UHGV virus genome: UHGV-1654939
Reading direction: 5' to 3' (one strand)
From: a virus
Length of the DNA: 10,117 bases
Position numbers and translations under genes: made by a program. The notes under the pieces were generated by a model. The model did no database searches and was not told where the DNA came from. It saw nothing but the letters and a program-made list of their open reading frames with translations. Of the stretch, positions 1-10,117 are shown piece by piece. Position 1 is the stretch's first letter; each line of letters starts with the position of its first letter.

Positions 1-1
1 T

Positions 2-179
2 ACTTTCGTGCTGTCGCGTATAGCAAGGGAAATATCCAGTATTCTCGACGGTATTCCTCTGTCGGTGCAGCGACGTTTTCCTGAGCTGGATAACCGGCAT
101 ATTGATTTCCTGAAACGGGATATCATCAAAGCCATGAACAAAGCAGCCGCGCTGGATGAACTGATACCGGGGTTGCTGA

Positions 180-205
<26 letters not shown>
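2..205 (+). CDS. nu1: Terminase small subunit, C-terminal part (5' end lies outside the window)
   Basis: Open frame entering from the window start (track ORF 8..205). The translation ...DNRHIDFLKRDIIKAMNKAAALDELIPGLLSEYIEQSD matches what I recall of the lambda Nu1 C-terminus. It overlaps the next gene by 26 nt (180-205), as in lambda. Confidence 0.88.
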
Positions 206-3886
<3,681 letters not shown>

Positions 3887-3906
<20 letters not shown>

Positions 3907-5206
3907 TCTCCCGCATATTGCCAGCATGGCCTTTAATGAGCCGCTGATGCTTGAACCCGCCTATGCGCGGGTTTTCTTTTGTGCGCTTGCAGGCCAGCTT
4001 GGGATCAGTCGCCTGACGGATGCGGTGTCCGGCGACAGTCTGACTGCCGGAGAGGCACCCGCGACGCTGGCGTTATCCGGTGATGATGACGGACCACGAC
4101 AGGCCCGCAGTTATCAGGTCATGAACGGCATCGCCGTGCTGCCGGTGTCCGGCACGCTGGTCAGCCGGACGCGGGCGCTGCAGCCGTATTCGGGGATGAC
4201 CGGTTACAACGGCATTATCGCCCGTCTGCAACAGGCTGCCAGCGACCCGATGGTGGACGGCATTCTGCTGGATATGGACACGCCCGGCGGAATGGTGGCA
4301 GGGGCATTTGACTGCGCTGACATCATCGCCCGTGTGCGTGACATAAAACCGGTATGGGCGCTTGCCAACGACATGAACTGCAGTGCAGGTCAGTTGCTTG
4401 CCAGTGCCGCCTCCCGGCGTCTGGTCACGCAGACCGCCCGGACAGGCTCCATCGGCGTCATGATGGCTCACAGTAATTACGGTGCTGCGCTGGAGAAACA
4501 GGGCGTGGAAATCACGCTGATTTACAGCGGCAGCCATAAGGTGGATGGCAACCCCTACAGCCATCTACCGGATGATGTCCGGGAAACACTGCAGTCCCGG
4601 ATGGATGCAACCCGCCGGATGTTTGCACAGAAGGTGTCGGCATATACCGGCCTGTCCGTGCAGGCTGTGCTGGATACCGAGGCTGCAGTGTACAGCGGTC
4701 AGGAGGCCATTGATGCCGGACTGGCTGATGAACTTGTTAACAGTACCGATGCGATCACCGTCATGCGTGATGCACTGGATGCACGTAAATCCCGTCTCTC
4801 AGGAGGGCGAATGACCAAAGAGACTCAATCAACAACTGTTTCAGCCACTGCTTCGCAGGCTGACGTTACTGACGTGGTGCCAGCGACGGAGGGCGAGAAC
4901 GCCAGCGCGGCGCAGCCGGACGTGAACGCGCAGATCACCGCAGCGGTTGCGGCAGAAAACAGCCGCATTATGGGGATCCTCAACTGTGAGGAGGCTCACG
5001 GACGCGAAGAACAGGCCCGCGTGCTGGCAGAAACCCCCGGTATGACCGTGGAAACGGCCCGCCGCATTCTGGCCGCAGCACCACAGAGTGCACAGGCGCG
5101 CAGTGACACTGCGCTGGATCGTCTGATGCAGGGGGCACCGGCACCGCTGGCTGCAGGTAACCCGGCATCTGATGCCGTTAACGATTTGCTGAACACACCA
5201 GTGTAA
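3887..5206 (+). CDS. C: Prohead protease / scaffold-processing protein gpC (S49 SppA-type peptidase), 439 aa
   Basis: Same frame as track ORF 3749..5206, but I place the start at GTG 3887-3889. It is preceded by GAGGAGG (3874-3880) and overlaps the end of B by 20 nt, giving the lambda length of 439 aa. The upstream ATG at 3749 would add 46 codons read across B in another frame. Confidence 0.88.
4601..5206 (+). CDS. nu3: Scaffolding protein Nu3, in-frame internal start within C, 201 aa
   Basis: ATG at 4601-4603 in the C frame, shared stop at 5204-5206. The translation MDATRRMFAQKVSAYTGLSVQAVLDTEAAVYSGQEAIDAGLADELV... matches lambda Nu3. The nested arrangement is established lambda biology. 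Confidence 0.75.
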   Translation: MDATRRMFAQKVSAYTGLSVQAVLDTEAAVYSGQEAIDAGLADELVNSTDAITVMRDALDARKSRLSGGRMTKETQSTTVSATASQADVTDVVPATEGENASAAQPDVNAQITAAVAAENSRIMGILNCEEAHGREEQARVLAETPGMTVETARRILAAAPQSAQARSDTALDRLMQGAPAPLAAGNPASDAVNDLLNTPV

Positions 5207-5215
5207 GGGATGTTT

Positions 5216-5548
5216 ATGACGAGCAAAGAAACCTTTACCCATTACCAGCCGCTGGGCAACAGTGACCCGGCTCATACCGCAACCGCGCCAGGCGGATTGA
5301 GTGCGAAAGCGCCTGCAATGACCCCGCTGATGCTGGACACCTCCAGCCGTAAGCTGGTTGCGTGGGATGGCACCACCGACGGTGCTGCCGTTGGCATTCT
5401 TGCAGTTGCTGCTGACCAGACCAGCACCACGCTGACGTTCTACAAGTCCGGCACGTTCCGTTATGAGGATGTGCTCTGGCCGGAGGCTGCCAGCGACGAG
5501 ACGAAAAAACGGACCGCGTTTGCCGGAACGGCAATCAGCATCGTTTAA
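5216..5548 (+). CDS. D: Head decoration protein gpD, 110 aa
   Basis: Track ORF 5210..5548. I take the second ATG (5216), giving [12 protein letters not shown]... and the lambda length of 110 aa. Confidence 0.94.
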
Positions 5549-5565
5549 CCTGACCCTTCATCACT

Positions 5566-5590
5566 AAAGGCCGCCTGTGCGGCTTTTTTT
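5566..5590 (+). terminator. GC stem-loop followed by a T-tract in the D-E intergenic spacer (terminator-like or RNA-stabilising hairpin)
   Basis: Stem GCCGC (5570-5574) and GCGGC (5579-5583) around loop CTGT, flanked by AAA on the 5' side and TTTTTTT (5584-5590) on the 3' side. A second T-run follows before the E start. Confidence 0.4.
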
Positions 5591-5603
5591 ACGGGATTTT
5601 TTT

Positions 5604-6629
5604 ATGTCGATGTACACAACCGCCCAGCTGCTGGCGGCAAATGAGCAGAAATTTAAGTTTGATCCGCTGTTTCTGCGTCTCTTTTTCCGTGAGAGCTATC
5701 CCTTCACCACGGAAAAAGTCTATCTCTCACAAATTCCGGGACTGGTAAACATGGCGCTGTACGTTTCGCCGATTGTTTCCGGTGAGGTTATCCGTTCCCG
5801 TGGCGGCTCCACCTCTGAATTTACGCCGGGATATGTCAAACCCAAGCATGAGGTGAATCCGCAGATGACCCTGCGTCGCCTGCCGGATGAAGATCCGCAG
5901 AATCTGGCGGACCCGGCTTACCGTCGCCGTCGCATCATCATGCAGAACATGCGTGACGAAGAGCTGGCCATTGCTCAGGTCGAAGAGATGCAGGCAGTTT
6001 CTGCCGTGCTCAAGGGCAAATACACCATGACCGGTGAAGCCTTCGATCCGGTTGAGGTGGATATGGGCCGCAGTGCGGCGAACAACATCACGCAGTCCGG
6101 CGGCACGGAGTGGAGCAAGCGTGACAAGTCCACGTATGACCCGACCGACGATATCGAAGCCTACGCGCTGAACGCCAGCGGTGTGGTGAATATCATCGTG
6201 TTCGATCCGAAAGGCTGGGCGCTGTTCCGTTCCTTCAAAGCCGTCAGGGAGAAGCTGGATACCCGTCGCGGCTCTCATTCCGAACTGGAGACAGCGGTAA
6301 AAGACCTGGGCAAAGCGGTGTCCTATAAGGGGATGTATGGCGATGTGGCCATCGTCGTGTATTCCGGACAGTACGTGGAAAACGGCGTCAAAAAGAACTT
6401 CCTGCCGGACAACACGATGGTGCTGGGGAACACTCAGGCACGCGGTCTGCGCACCTATGGCTGCATTCAGGATGCGGACGCACAGCGCGAAGGCATTAAC
6501 GCCTCTGCCCGTTACCCGAAAAACTGGGTGACCACCGGCGATCCGGCGCGTGAGTTCACCATGATTCAGTCAGCACCGCTGATGCTGCTGGCTGATCCTG
6601 ATGAGTTCGTGTCTGTACAACTGGCGTAA
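5604..6629 (+). CDS. E: Major capsid protein gpE, 341 aa
   Basis: Track ORF 5577..6629. The start is taken at ATG 5604 (MSMYTTAQLLAANEQKF...), giving the lambda length of 341 aa. The longer track start would run through the upstream hairpin. Confidence 0.96.
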   Translation: MSMYTTAQLLAANEQKFKFDPLFLRLFFRESYPFTTEKVYLSQIPGLVNMALYVSPIVSGEVIRSRGGSTSEFTPGYVKPKHEVNPQMTLRRLPDEDPQNLADPAYRRRRIIMQNMRDEELAIAQVEEMQAVSAVLKGKYTMTGEAFDPVEVDMGRSAANNITQSGGTEWSKRDKSTYDPTDDIEAYALNASGVVNIIVFDPKGWALFRSFKAVREKLDTRRGSHSELETAVKDLGKAVSYKGMYGDVAIVVYSGQYVENGVKKNFLPDNTMVLGNTQARGLRTYGCIQDADAQREGINASARYPKNWVTTGDPAREFTMIQSAPLMLLADPDEFVSVQLA

Positions 6630-6631
6630 TC

Positions 6632-6653
6632 ATGGCCCTTCGGGGCCATTTTC
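6632..6653 (+). terminator. Perfect 7-bp hairpin with a TTCG tetraloop in the E-FI spacer (terminator-like or mRNA-stabilising)
   Basis: ATGGCCC (6632-6638), loop TTCG (6639-6642), GGGCCAT (6643-6649), then TTTTCTCTCT. It sits immediately after the E stop (6627-6629) and before the FI ribosome-binding site GGAGG. Confidence 0.4.
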
Positions 6654-6670
6654 TCTCTGTGGAGGAGTTC

Positions 6671-7069
6671 ATGACGAAAGATGAACTGATTGCCCGTCTT
6701 CAGGAGCTGGGTGAGCAACTGAACCGCGATGTCAGTTTGACGGGAACGAAAGAAGAACTGGCGCTTCGTGTGGCAGAGCTGGAAGAGGAGCTTGATGACA
6801 CGGATGAAACTGCCGGTCAGGACACCCCTCTCAGCCGGGAAAATGTGCTGACCGGGCATGAAAATGAGGTGGTATCAGCGCAGCCGGATACCGTGATTCA
6901 GGATACGGCTGAACTGGTCACGGTCGTGGCACTGGTGACGCTGCATACTGATGCACTTCACGCCACGCGGGATGAACCTGTGGCATTTGTGCTGCCGGGA
7001 ACGGCGTTTCGTGTCTCTGCCGGTGTGGCAGCCGAAATGACAGAACGTGGCCTGGCCAGAATGCAATAA
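6671..7069 (+). CDS. FI: DNA-packaging / head assembly protein gpFI, 132 aa
   Basis: Track ORF 6632..7069. The start is taken at ATG 6671, which is preceded by GGAGGAG (6661-6667). MTKDELIARLQELGEQLNRD... matches lambda FI. Confidence 0.92.
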   Translation: MTKDELIARLQELGEQLNRDVSLTGTKEELALRVAELEEELDDTDETAGQDTPLSRENVLTGHENEVVSAQPDTVIQDTAELVTVVALVTLHTDALHATRDEPVAFVLPGTAFRVSAGVAAEMTERGLARMQ

Positions 7070-7080
7070 CGGGAGGCGCT

Positions 7081-7434
7081 GTGGCTGATTTCGATAACCT
7101 GTTCGATGCTGCCATTGCTCGCGCTGATGAAACGATACGCGGGTACATGGGAACGTCAGCCACCATGACATCCGGTGAGCAGTCCGGTGCTGTGATACGT
7201 GGTGTTTTTGATGACCCTGAAAATATCAGCTATGCCGGACAGGGCGTGCGCGTTGAAGGCTCCAGCCCGTCCCTGTTTGTCCGGACTGATGATGTGCGGC
7301 AGCTGCGGCGTGGAGACACGCTGACCATCGGTGAGGAAAACTTCTGGATAGACCGGATTTCGCCGGATGATGGCGGAAGTTGTCATCTCTGGCTTGGACG
7401 GGGCGTACCGCCTGCCGTTAACCGTCGCCGCTGA
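7081..7434 (+). CDS. FII: Head completion / head-tail connector protein gpFII, 117 aa
   Basis: Track ORF 7081..7434. The start codon is GTG, preceded by GGGAGG. MADFDNLFDAAIARADETIRGYMG... and the 117-aa length are as in lambda FII. Confidence 0.92.
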   Translation: MADFDNLFDAAIARADETIRGYMGTSATMTSGEQSGAVIRGVFDDPENISYAGQGVRVEGSSPSLFVRTDDVRQLRRGDTLTIGEENFWIDRISPDDGGSCHLWLGRGVPPAVNRRR

Positions 7435-7445
7435 AAGGGGGATGT

Positions 7446-7808
7446 ATGGCCATAAAAGGTCTTGAGCAGGCCGTTGAAAACCTCAGCCGTATCAGCAGAA
7501 CGGCGGTGCCCGGTGCCGCCGCAATGGCCATTAACCGCGTTGCTTCATCCGCGATATCGCAGTCGGTGGTACAGGTTGCCCGTGAGACAAAGGTACGCCG
7601 GAAACTGGTAAAGGAAAGGGCCAGGCTGAAAAGGGCCACGGTCAAAAATCCGCAGGCCAGAATCAAGGTTAACCGGGGGGATTTGCCCGTAATAAAGCTG
7701 GGTAACGCGCGGGTTGTCCTGTCCCGACGCAGGCGTCGTAAAAAGGGGCAGCGTTCAGCCCTGAAAGGTGGCGGCAGTGTGCTTGTGGTGGGTAGAGTCG
7801 ACTCGTAA
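7446..7808 (+). pseudogene. Z: Truncated tail-completion gene Z: about 116 lambda-like codons, then 4 unrelated codons (RVDS) and a stop
   Basis: Track ORF 7446..7808 is 120 aa, against 192 aa for lambda gpZ as I recall it. The start is 11 nt after the FII stop, as in lambda. MAIKGLEQAVENLSRIS... is Z-like up to ...GGGSVLVVG (through nt 7793), after which the frame ends at TAA 7806-7808. Confidence 0.8.
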
Positions 7809-7833
7809 GGTTAGGGATTCAGATTATGCGAAC

Positions 7834-8916
7834 ATGCAAACGCTGATTAACAGCGACACAAAACGTATATACGTTCGCTTTGTTGTTAATGGAAACTGGA
7901 CAGCGTGGAGTCAGGTTGTTGTTTCCGGATGGAATCAGGATATAACTGTCAGGTCGTTAACCACATCTAGTCCGGTAAAATCTGGCGGAGGGCGAATTGA
8001 TGTCCTTGGAAGCACGTCAGACTATAGCAAAATGGATTGCTTTGTACGTGGGTTTGATAGCACCGGTAATTCTCTCGCGTGGGCGTTGGGTTCATCAGCC
8101 GGCGTAAGTAAGATGCTGTCGCTAAAAAATTTCTTTAGCGGAGCTGAGATACTGTTAAATGGTAATGACGGCGCGGTTCAACTCAAAACAGGTGCTGTTA
8201 ACGGGGCTACAGCGCAGGCGCTCACTATCAACAGGAATGAGGTTAACTCAACCGTTGATTTAACCCTTACAAAGCAATCAGGGACTGGTAATCGTTTTGT
8301 TTTACAGAACTCAGGTAATGCAGAACTACCGTTTTCTGTCAGGGTGTGGGGTTCCAGTACTCGACAAAACGTTTTTGAGGTTGGCACGTCTGCTGCGTAT
8401 CTGTTTTATGCGCAAAAAACGTCAGCAGGCCAGTTGTTTGATGTAAATGGCGCTATTAATTGCACAACGCTGAATCAGTCATCAGACCGCGACCTTAAAG
8501 ACGATATTCTCGTTATCAGCGACGCGACGAAAGCAATCCGTAAAATGAACGGATACACCTACACGCTCAGGGAAAACGGGATGCCTTATGCTGGCGTTAT
8601 TGCACAGGAAGTAATGGAGGCGATACCAGAAGCTGTGGGATCGTTTACTCATTACGGTGAAGAGTTGCAAGGCCCGACCGTTGACGGCAACGAGCTACGC
8701 GAAGAAACGCGCTATCTTAATGTTGACTACGCCGCCGTGACGGGTTTACTTGTTCAGGTCGCCCGTGAAACAGATGATCGCGTTACCGCGCTGGAAGAGG
8801 AAAACACAACGCTACGTCAAAATCTGGCAACAGCAGACACCCGGATCAGCACTCTGGAAAATCAGGTAAGCGAACTGGTTGCACTTGTCCGGCAGTTAAC
8901 AGGAAGCGAACATTGA
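7834..8916 (+). CDS. Tail fibre C-terminal fragment: distal receptor-binding region plus intramolecular chaperone (peptidase S74-like) domain. It lacks an N-terminal tail-attachment part and may be a pseudogene.
   Basis: Track ORF 7768..8916. The first 22 codons are Z sequence read in another frame, so I take the first in-frame ATG after the junction (7834). The motif SSDRDLKDDI begins at 8479, followed by GYTYTL and a C-terminal heptad-like segment (TALEEENTTLRQNLATADTRISTLENQVSELVALV). This is the characteristic layout of self-cleaving chaperone domains of phage fibres and tailspikes. There is no convincing ribosome-binding site. Confidence 0.6.
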   Translation: MQTLINSDTKRIYVRFVVNGNWTAWSQVVVSGWNQDITVRSLTTSSPVKSGGGRIDVLGSTSDYSKMDCFVRGFDSTGNSLAWALGSSAGVSKMLSLKNFFSGAEILLNGNDGAVQLKTGAVNGATAQALTINRNEVNSTVDLTLTKQSGTGNRFVLQNSGNAELPFSVRVWGSSTRQNVFEVGTSAAYLFYAQKTSAGQLFDVNGAINCTTLNQSSDRDLKDDILVISDATKAIRKMNGYTYTLRENGMPYAGVIAQEVMEAIPEAVGSFTHYGEELQGPTVDGNELREETRYLNVDYAAVTGLLVQVARETDDRVTALEEENTTLRQNLATADTRISTLENQVSELVALVRQLTGSEH

Positions 8917-9099
8917 TATCCTTCAAGCTCTGAAGGAGGCTGTTCCCGGTACGTTCAGACTGTTGTTGAGCTGGAAATCGCAACGGAGGAAGAGAAAGCG
9001 TTACTGGCCGCATGGAAAAAGTATCGGGTGTTGCTGAACCGTGTTGATACATCAACTGCACCGGATATTGAGTGGCCTGCTGTCCCTGTTATGGAGTAA
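8917..9099 (+). pseudogene. tfa: Tail fibre assembly protein (tfa-type) 3' remnant, with no start codon of its own
   Basis: Directly after the fibre TGA (8914-8916) and in the same frame, the translation runs ...[44 protein letters not shown] to TAA 9097-9099. I recognise this ending as the conserved C-terminus of lambda-type Tfa proteins. Exactly where the tfa homology begins is not determined. Confidence 0.5.
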
Positions 9100-9443
9100 T
9101 CGTTTTGTGATATGCCGCAGACACGTCGTATGCAGGAACGTGCTGCGGCTGGCTGGTGAACTTTCAATAGTGCGAGTATTGAATGATTTCCAGCTGTTAT
9201 CGATTTTATGTGTTTTTTGCATGAGGGGATTTCCACCACCTCCCACCGACCATCTAAGACTTTATGCCACTGTCCCTAGGACTGCTATGTACTAGGAGCG
9301 GATGTTAAACTCAGACTCGTTTCAGCTACATTGCGTTTTGAATAATATTTCATCATAATAACTCTTTGAAAAATGTGATCTTTTCATTTATAACACTGAT
9401 GACTTGCTTATCTCATTGGGATATCGGAGGAGAATACTTAACT

Positions 9444-9572
9444 ATGACAAGCCCGATTATTATGACACTGGCTATATTATATAGATTGATATTAAAATGT
9501 AGGATTAGGTTCTTGCCAAGGTGTCAAGATTTACAGATAGGTTTAAAACCATATAAATATGTTTTACGGTGA
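9444..9572 (+). CDS. Hypothetical small hydrophobic peptide, 42 aa (possible single-helix membrane peptide)
   Basis: ATG 9444 is preceded by GGAGGAG (9426-9432). The peptide MTSPIIMTLAILYRLILKCRIRFLPRCQDLQIGLKPYKYVLR has a hydrophobic N-half and a basic C-half. It is the 3' part of track ORF 9366..9572. No homology is known to me, and it could be chance in AT-rich DNA. Confidence 0.2.
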   Translation: MTSPIIMTLAILYRLILKCRIRFLPRCQDLQIGLKPYKYVLR

Positions 9573-9612
9573 GATACAATACATATTGTAAGGCATAAAC
9601 GCTTGGTAAAAT
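9531..9612 (+). promoter_or_regulatory. Candidate sigma70-type promoter elements upstream of the 9637 ORF
   Basis: TTACAG (9531-9536) lies 17 nt before TAAATA (9554-9559). TTGTAA (9586-9591) lies 15 nt before TAAAAT (9607-9612). These are hexamer matches by eye in AT-rich DNA, where such matches are frequent. Confidence 0.2.
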
Positions 9613-9636
9613 TTTAATTATTGGAAGAAGCTAATC

Positions 9637-10117
9637 ATGGAACCCATATCAATTACAGTGGCAACTTATGTAGCAACTAAACTTATTGATCAATTCATCT
9701 CTCAAGAAGGATATGGTTGTATTAAGAAAGCATTATTCCCCCAAAAAAGATACGTGGATAGATTATATCAACTAATTGAAGAGACGGCAATTGAGTTTGA
9801 AGAAACATATCCAGTAGAAAGTGGAGCAATACCATTTTATCATTCCGAACCATTGTTTGAGATGTTGAATGAGCACATCTTGTTTAAAGAGTTCCCTGAC
9901 AAAGAGATATTATTAGACAAGTTCAAAGAATATCCAAGTATCACTCCCCCAACTCAACAACAACTCAGCCTTTTTTATGAGATGTTATCATTAAAAATCA
10001 ATAATTGTTCGAAGTTAAAAAAGCTACATATCGAAGAAACGTATAAAGAAAAAATATTCGATATTAATGAAGAGCTCATTCAAGTTAAACTTATTTTACG
10101 GTCTATAGATGAGAAAC
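9637..10117 (+). CDS. Hypothetical protein, N-terminal 160 aa or more (continues beyond the window); unassigned
   Basis: I translated this by hand from ATG 9637 and found no stop codon through nt 10117: MEPISITVATYVATKLIDQFISQEGYGCIKKALFPQKRYVDRLYQLIEETAIEFEETYPVESGAIPFYHSEPLFEMLNEHILFKEFPDKEILLDKFKEYPSITPPTQQQLSLFYEMLSLKINNCSKLKKLHIEETYKEKIFDINEELIQVKLILRSIDEK. It is absent from the ORF track, presumably because it has no stop in the window. A weak Shine-Dalgarno-like GGAAGAAG sits at 9623-9630. Codon usage fits the local ~32% GC. Confidence 0.6.
   Translation, partial: MEPISITVATYVATKLIDQFISQEGYGCIKKALFPQKRYVDRLYQLIEETAIEFEETYPVESGAIPFYHSEPLFEMLNEHILFKEFPDKEILLDKFKEYPSITPPTQQQLSLFYEMLSLKINNCSKLKKLHIEETYKEKIFDINEELIQVKLILRSIDEK

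Follow-up and report, generated by a model that had tools for sequence, protein, structure and literature searches.

A probable avs2 gene start in the low-GC cargo of a lambda-like prophage remnant and its candidate membrane-targeting effector domain

The open reading frame (ORF) that begins at position 9637 of the window, the whole 10,117-nucleotide stretch analysed here, is very probably the start of avs2. On sequence grounds, the best explanation is that it encodes EcAvs2, an abortive-infection system made of one protein, and that the gene is low-GC cargo at the right-hand end of a lambda-like prophage. The gene is already known and is not new. EcAvs2, reportedly discovered by Gao et al. 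in 2020 and with a trigger reportedly identified by Gao et al. in 2022, is among the best-studied bacterial pattern-recognition receptors. The window carries only 11% of avs2, and the visible 160 amino acids (aa) are essentially the whole of a modular N-terminal effector, the ‘MEPIS’ motif domain, which lies outside the conserved Avs2 core. The value of the fragment beyond its identity lies in this effector and in how it kills; the domain is widespread (218 clusters, ∼9 fusion architectures). The ORF and the DNA directly upstream contain the following features:

9303–9636 (+): AT-rich leader/promoter region specific to the avs2 cassette, starting at the left cargo edge (∼9303)
9623–9630 (+): purine-rich Shine-Dalgarno-like GGAAGAAG, 6 nt 5′ of the ATG, read from the sequence by its resemblance to the consensus only
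9637–10117 (+): probable 5′ end of avs2, codons 1–160 of 1484 (AVAST type 2 anti-phage STAND NTPase, EcAvs2), assigned by DNA identity, family models, and a PDB match

Identity of the ORF and its upstream DNA

DNA identity, family models, and a solved structure all point to avs2. The last 818 bp of the window (9300–10117) are 100% identical in five complete E. coli genomes. The same segment was found in 87 of 5426 complete E. coli genomes, and the ORF is annotated avs2 in every match listed; in all 87 avs2-positive genomes at least 80% of 9300–10117 is covered. NZ_CM169476.1 served as the full-length reference; it agrees with the window at every one of the first 481 coding bases and the 337 bases before them. 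In this genome the same ATG opens a 4455-bp gene (3585959–3590413) that encodes 1484 aa. The 1484-aa protein scores 1689.9 bits against the NCBIfam Avs2 equivalog NF041813.1 (cut-off 1000; residues 178–1476), and six PADLOC Avs2 models match it, the best at 1751 bits. It also aligns over residues 1–1484 with PDB 9O4E chain A (‘AVAST type 2 anti-phage system protein Avs2’), with two substitutions among the ∼957 residues listed. The window's 160 residues are those of 9O4E residues 1–160 except at position 82 (L here, F in 9O4E).

The NF041813 span (residues 178–1476) falls wholly outside the window's 160 codons, and the 160-aa fragment has no match in Pfam, NCBIfam, or PHROGs. It does match PADLOC model PDLC02164 (E 7.2e-6), the sole PADLOC Avs2 model that reaches into it. 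The fragment escaped the family models because the variable N-terminal effector lies outside every curated core model. The remaining landmarks of the protein are likewise downstream of the window. An earlier reading of this DNA from its sequence alone (the sequence-only reading) was right that the visible part has no Walker A motif: in the full-length homologue, GKAGIGKS occupies residues 342–349. Pfam nSTAND6, NACHT, and NB-ARC match weakly at residues 325–430, all under their gathering cut-offs. The C-terminal TPR and β-rich terminase sensor are assigned through near-identity to the 9O4E chain, which was solved in complex with PhiV-1 terminase.

The sequence-only reading had further proposed an accessory or defence gene, and had called the ORF the most likely place in the window for something undescribed. 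The avs2 annotation, the NCBIfam and PADLOC Avs2 matches, and the match to 9O4E bear out the first proposal. The family that was found is a known defence family and not the housekeeping or phage family that would have spoken against the reading, so the role in defence stands while the novelty does not: the ORF is an EcAvs2, which is already characterized. The gene differs in no substantive way from the EcAvs2 of PDB 9O4E; its setting here is a tail-less lambdoid prophage remnant.

Sensing and assembly have been worked out by others for a protein that is essentially identical. In the study that reported the EcAvs2–terminase cryo-EM structure (PDB 9O4E; Evans et al. 2026, PMC13601566), EcAvs2 countered the phages T7, PhiV-1, ZL19, and Pal009. 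Whole-genome screens of PhiV-1 and ZL19 returned the terminase as the only trigger, and Ksap1 of Pal009 was a further activator (PMC13601566). The C-terminal TPR and β-rich part does the sensing and recognizes the ATPase domain of the large terminase. On terminase binding, the central STAND ATPase drives oligomerization to a flat C4 tetramer, resolved at 2.3 Å, and the cell dies before the phage matures (PMC13601566). Defence is lost in the K348A mutant of the Walker A lysine (PMC13601566).

The ORF is well defined at its 5′ end and open at its 3′ end. As the sequence-only reading had it, a frame of at least 160 codons starts at 9637 and runs off the window: the ATG lies at 9637–9639 (+), and the frame is free of stops to its last codon, through base 10116. 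The ORF is cut at codon 160 because the window ends where the metagenome contig does; the window is one entire contig (ena:ERZ773255 NODE_3218, 10,117 bp, coverage 2.8x). The five other frames over this stretch contain 8–18 stops each, and the chance of 160 open codons is ∼1.7e-6 under a mononucleotide model for sequence of 32% GC. The nearest in-frame stop upstream is a TAA at 9607, 30 nt before the ATG, and no alternative start codon lies between the two. Of the expression signals proposed at first, the Shine-Dalgarno sequence holds as a consensus resemblance and the promoter hexamers do not. A promoter/terminator scan found six consensus hexamer sites versus 4.6 ± 1.8 in shuffled sequence, which is chance level, and it called no + strand site ahead of the ORF. 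By eye, TGGTAAAAT at 9604–9612 looks like an extended −10, a consensus match in AT-rich DNA that is not significant.

The leader belongs to the avs2 cassette. Matches of avs2-negative genomes to the tail-fibre-assembly remnant end at window position 9302, and avs2-specific DNA therefore begins at ∼9303. GC content is 37% over 9100–9636. One 68-aa ORF within the leader (9366–9572, +) is probably no gene: it has a TTG start and no family match, and it is unannotated in RefSeq genomes. An Rfam scan of 8800–10117 gave nothing at gathering score. Below that score, RF02111 (IS009, a candidate E. coli sRNA) matches 8856–9056 (+) with 81.5 bits and E 1.6e-18 (gathering score 117); parts of the tail-fibre-assembly remnant and of the tail-fibre gene (its 3′ end) fall within this match.

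The N-terminal effector and its fusion partners

The part of EcAvs2 that lies within the window is also the part that is invisible in the cryo-EM map, where it was termed ‘uncharacterized’ (PMC13601566). Its features are:

9646–9699 (+): predicted N-terminal hydrophobic helix, residues 4–21 (ISITVATYVATKLIDQFI), after the ‘MEPIS’ start; proposed membrane-targeting element, from hydrophobicity, conservation, and an AlphaFold2 (AF2) model
9751–10113 (+): predicted helical core of the effector, residues 39–159 (helices 39–57, 71–80, 89–96, 107–123, and 125–159), from AF2 and conservation
9937–9963 (+): SITPPTQQQ, residues 101–109, a conserved loop (family consensus PNIIxPT) into helix 107–123, from AF2 and an alignment of 57 homologues

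The protein begins with MEPISITVATYVATKLIDQFI, a MEPIS-type start. The N-terminal ‘MEPIS’ motif was named by Ibarlosa et al. and is common to Bab, the Bell and Hell domains, Avast2, and bNACHT02/11/23 (bioRxiv 10.1101/2024.11.07.622273). A strict MEPIS-like start occurs in only 30 of 130 homologues of the effector. No other 18-residue segment of the domain is as hydrophobic as residues 4–21 (Eisenberg mean H 0.44 versus ∼0 in the other helices), and family columns 4–13 are almost without charged residues across 57 homologues. By hand calculation, the Kyte-Doolittle mean of helix 1 is ∼1.1 over 19 residues, too low for a classical transmembrane segment.

The AF2 model (m656db769fec2, built from the alignment of 57 homologues; mean pLDDT 78.4) predicts an all-helical domain of six helices, namely helix 5–21 and the five helices of the core. 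Most 10-residue blocks across residues 41–130 average a pLDDT of 90–95. Confidence is lower at the start (∼50 for helix 5–21 and ∼47–60 over residues 1–35), and the packing of helix 1 is not defined by the model. The SITPPTQQQ stretch was correctly located by the sequence-only reading, which took it for a possible separator of two N-terminal segments. It is instead a conserved loop within one confidently modelled helical domain: P105 is present in 95% and T106 in 70% of the 57 homologues, and pLDDT is 92–94 over residues 100–130.

Conservation in the effector is hydrophobic in character. F67 is the sole invariant residue among the 57 homologues. Residues conserved in at least 80% are L43, I47, P66, F67, Y68, S70, L77, P105, F113, position 117 (F in the family consensus, L in EcAvs2), L127, L130, Y136, I140, and F141. 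All of these columns are non-polar, aromatic, or proline with the exception of S70, and no charged column is conserved at 80% or above. The absence of a conserved charged column, with S70 as the one polar exception, argues against an enzyme. Known Avs2 proteins provide a point of comparison. KpAvs2 and most Avs2 proteins have the same STAND ATPase and terminase-sensing C-terminal region as EcAvs2, and kill via an N-terminal Mrr-like nuclease that degrades DNA (PMC11564622; PMC13601566 likewise gives this as the effector of most Avs2 proteins). A search of residues 1–160 for an Mrr-like/PD-(D/E)xK nuclease found no nuclease motif, no Pfam or NCBIfam match, and no conserved acidic or lysine catalytic residues among the 57 homologues.

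Another likeness is to the small helical domains of Bab/Agp, Bell, Hell, and HeLo, with which the effector has in common the N-terminal ‘MEPIS’ hydrophobic helix and a small all-helical domain (bioRxiv 10.1101/2024.11.07.622273; Nat Microbiol 2025). At ∼160 aa, the EcAvs2-type domain is larger than Babybell (∼80 aa) and Bell (∼100 aa) and, unlike Bab, it has no C-terminal amyloid motif. Bab moves to the cell periphery, and in infected cells the membrane retracts (bioRxiv 10.1101/2024.11.07.622273); among these proteins, membrane relocalization or permeabilization on activation is shown for Bab only. Comparisons of sequence and fold did not extend the likeness. Foldseek searches of the effector model returned no specific neighbour in the PDB (E ≥1.1) or in BFVD (E ≥0.57), and a profile search of PDB sequences with the effector family recovered only 9O4E, with no link to Bab or HeLo. 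Neither sequence-profile nor fold searches with the effector recovered the solved HET-S HeLo, MLKL 4HB, ZAR1 CC, or Bab structures. We do not file the effector as a member of the HeLo/Bell fold; the likeness is one of action only, in that it probably works like one.

The effector family spans distant taxa. When 1.84 billion representatives were searched exhaustively with HMMER, 218 clusters (50% identity) matched at E ≤1e-3. This was the informative search; word-indexed homology searches returned almost only short fragments. Among the 150 matches listed, the effector sits at the protein start wherever the match begins near query residue 1. Clustering the C-terminal remainders of 91 long matches gave ∼9 unrelated architectures, with Pfam labels that include nSTAND3, NB-ARC with TPR, NACHT, AAA_16-type STANDs, and TPR-GreAB-C-PIN. 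The commonest partner, TPR-GreAB-C-PIN (36 of the 91 long representatives), is not a STAND NTPase. Proteins of this architecture are ∼1250 aa long and lack a Walker A motif, and seven of the eight that were scanned contain PF20698 (representative-library matches P0027, P0038, P0058, P0074, P0125, P0150, and P0160 are examples). In the Bab/Agp system, the Agp-type TPR-GreAB-C-PIN sensor signals by an amyloid motif to a separate Bab; the EcAvs2-type domain is most often fused to the same type of sensor. Such a protein is in effect the two-gene Bab/Agp amyloid-signalling system joined into one. Direct fusion to an Agp-type sensor argues that the effector is the functional equivalent of Bab and a self-contained executioner.

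Candidate killing mechanism and its alternatives

We consider a membrane mechanism in which the first two steps would be those published for the near-identical protein. The C-terminal sensor would bind the ATPase domain of a phage large terminase, and the STAND ATPase (Walker A K348) would assemble the flat C4 tetramer. We infer that the tetramer would then gather four effector domains and free the N-terminal hydrophobic ‘MEPIS’ helix of each from a helical sheath. The freed helix would insert into the inner membrane and compromise it, much like Bab/Bell, fungal HeLo, the MLKL 4HB domain, and plant CC domains, and unlike the DNA-degrading majority of Avs2 proteins. That tetramerization releases the helix into the inner membrane is the likeliest of the candidate mechanisms, and we judge its chances to be about even. 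Observations that count towards it include the lack of a conserved partner gene downstream of avs2, the N-terminal helix as the most hydrophobic of the domain, the absence of a charged residue conserved at 80%, and the frequent fusion to the sensor type that signals to Bab. The modest hydrophobicity of helix 1, its low-confidence placement in the model, and the strict MEPIS-like start in only 30 of 130 homologues count against it. A broader reading is possible and is offered tentatively. The window's 160 residues may constitute a death domain that is whole, self-sufficient, and non-enzymatic, with a fold not seen among solved structures. It would kill by oligomerization-driven release of its N-terminal helix into the membrane, and at least nine sensor types would have acquired it by exchange, among them the Agp type, to which it is fused directly and which otherwise reaches Bab through amyloid signalling.

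Read in this way, the domain would stand beside the plant CC, fungal HeLo, and MLKL 4HB executioners as their bacterial equivalent. The analogy drawn with plant CC-NLR resistosomes (the ZAR1 α-1 helix, with its MADA motif) and with the MLKL 4HB domain is that of an NLR-type oligomer exposing an N-terminal helix for attack on a membrane. There are also differences: the ZAR1-type resistosome is a pentameric funnel whereas EcAvs2 is a flat tetramer, and fold searches returned no match. The resemblance of the EcAvs2 effector to plant CC-NLRs and MLKL may be taken as a lead. The idea of a membrane death domain is already in the literature, and its proof would be confirmatory rather than a new concept.

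The strongest alternative keeps the gene as avs2 and places its effector off the membrane. There, once oligomerized, it might take hold of an essential host factor, either sequestering or activating it, or serve as an adaptor like death-fold/EAD domains. The authors of the EcAvs2 structure allow for this, naming ‘membranes or interacting partners’ as targets of the effector (PMC13601566). The effector also has no structural likeness to known pore-forming helical bundles, and its conserved surface-type aromatics and prolines (P66-F67-Y68, P105) could be a binding site. We nonetheless regard an off-membrane effector as the less likely reading on three counts. No conserved gene lies beside avs2, which would leave only a conserved host protein as a partner; ∼9 sensor architectures from distant taxa offer no plausible effector other than this domain; and the domain shares its N-terminal motif with Bab, which relocalizes to the membrane.

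The two further alternatives that concern the fragment itself are improbable, the second somewhat more so than the first. The ORF in this sample could be a truncated or decaying avs2 remnant rather than a working gene. The contig does stop at codon 160 at 2.8x coverage, and the adjoining prophage lacks 14,085 bp of tail genes. However, the 818 bp that include the leader are 100% identical to genomes with the intact 4455-bp gene, the visible part has no frameshift or stop, and the ends of low-coverage contigs are assembly breaks and no sign of truncation. The other alternative is that the N-terminus signals by amyloid or prion-like templating, as BASS motifs do, instead of acting directly. It takes its cue from the first 15 residues of EcAvs2, which were reported to be homologous to, and to resemble, amyloid-signalling cell-death proteins (PMC13601566). 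Against templating, the amyloid motif of Bab (BASS11) is C-terminal and the N-terminal region that is shared is the hydrophobic helix of the globular domain. The EcAvs2 effector is moreover fused to its sensor, which makes a templating step needless, and AF2 predicts a helix at the N-terminus. Finally, that the ORF is an undescribed gene opening a new multi-gene accessory or defence locus can be dismissed almost outright: the lack of a Pfam, NCBIfam, or PHROG match to the 160-aa fragment alone speaks for it, but the fragment is near-identical to a deposited, experimentally characterized protein and the cassette is a single gene.

Prophage setting and a possible cargo slot

The DNA upstream of avs2 is a segment of a lambda-like prophage that carries head genes and the remains of a tail region:

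180–2105: large terminase, GpA-type
Between the large terminase and the portal in the gene list: gpW
2305–3906: portal
After the portal, in the order listed: S49 protease/scaffold, decoration protein, major capsid protein, FI, FII
7446–7808: truncated Z-like gene, 120 aa
7834–8916: C-terminal part of an S74-peptidase tail fibre, out of frame (the frame is given as 7768–8916 elsewhere)
3′ of the tail fibre and left of the cargo edge at ∼9303: tail-fibre-assembly remnant

GC content drops from 57% in the head genes to 32–37% at the right end of the window, with the ORF itself at 32%. This supports the initial placement of the ORF in a cargo region, which was horizontally acquired. In complete genomes the low-GC island is ∼5 kb long, has 31–38% GC, and holds avs2 alone, with a tail-fibre-assembly remnant on one side and the integrase of another element on the other. 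No conserved partner gene was found downstream of avs2 in the complete-genome loci compared. The island between the remnant and the integrase is therefore cargo of a single gene, and avs2 does not open an operon; the sequence-only reading had made the ORF a candidate first gene of a locus, and EcAvs2 is a single-gene system. The tail-fibre junction seen in the window occurs in only 15 of the 87 avs2-positive genomes. A search of 50,697 phage records with the fragment gave no match, and the surroundings of avs2 in NZ_CM169476.1 show neither a tRNA nor an att landmark.

The prophage in the window is defective. Compared with NZ_OZ547461.1, it has a clean 14,085-bp deletion at position 7792: window 1–7792 corresponds to 5119–12910 of the locus extracted from that genome and window 7792–10117 to 26996–29321. 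The deletion runs from the 3′ part of Z through U, V, G, T, H, M, L, K, I, J, and lom into the 5′ part of the tail-fibre gene. The 120-aa Z junction protein is indexed in 25 blocks; the four further occurrences listed are from other samples. Because the junction protein recurs in other samples, this is a real, widespread defective prophage and not a misassembly.

A distance of 7.5 kb separates the GpA-type large terminase gene from avs2, which lies downstream of it and whose product large terminases trigger. A terminase sensor beside the prophage's own terminase raises the question of how avs2-carrying prophages avoid triggering it on induction. In NZ_OZ547461.1, where the prophage is apparently complete, induction would express both terminase and avs2. 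Either lambda-type terminases escape EcAvs2, or avs2 penalizes induction of the prophage that carries it.

The DNA on the far side of avs2 varies among isolates. In E. coli EC25, positions 19388–28818 of the locus extracted from NZ_CM169476.1, directly 3′ of avs2, hold a satellite-like element with genes for an integrase, an HTH regulator, Ash, a primase, and an Icd-like protein; the far end of the extracted locus carries a SIR2-family gene. Taken together, these features suggest a compound defence island in EC25. In isolate AB66, the position 3′ of avs2 is full of IS elements. In the avs2-negative genome NZ_CP103295.1 (1613000–1626000), the homologous prophage end leads into a SAM-methyltransferase, a tfa remnant, an alpha/beta hydrolase, and ompT-envY-ybcH-nfrA. 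This arrangement resembles the DLP12 right end of E. coli K-12 and suggests that the position is a variable cargo slot.
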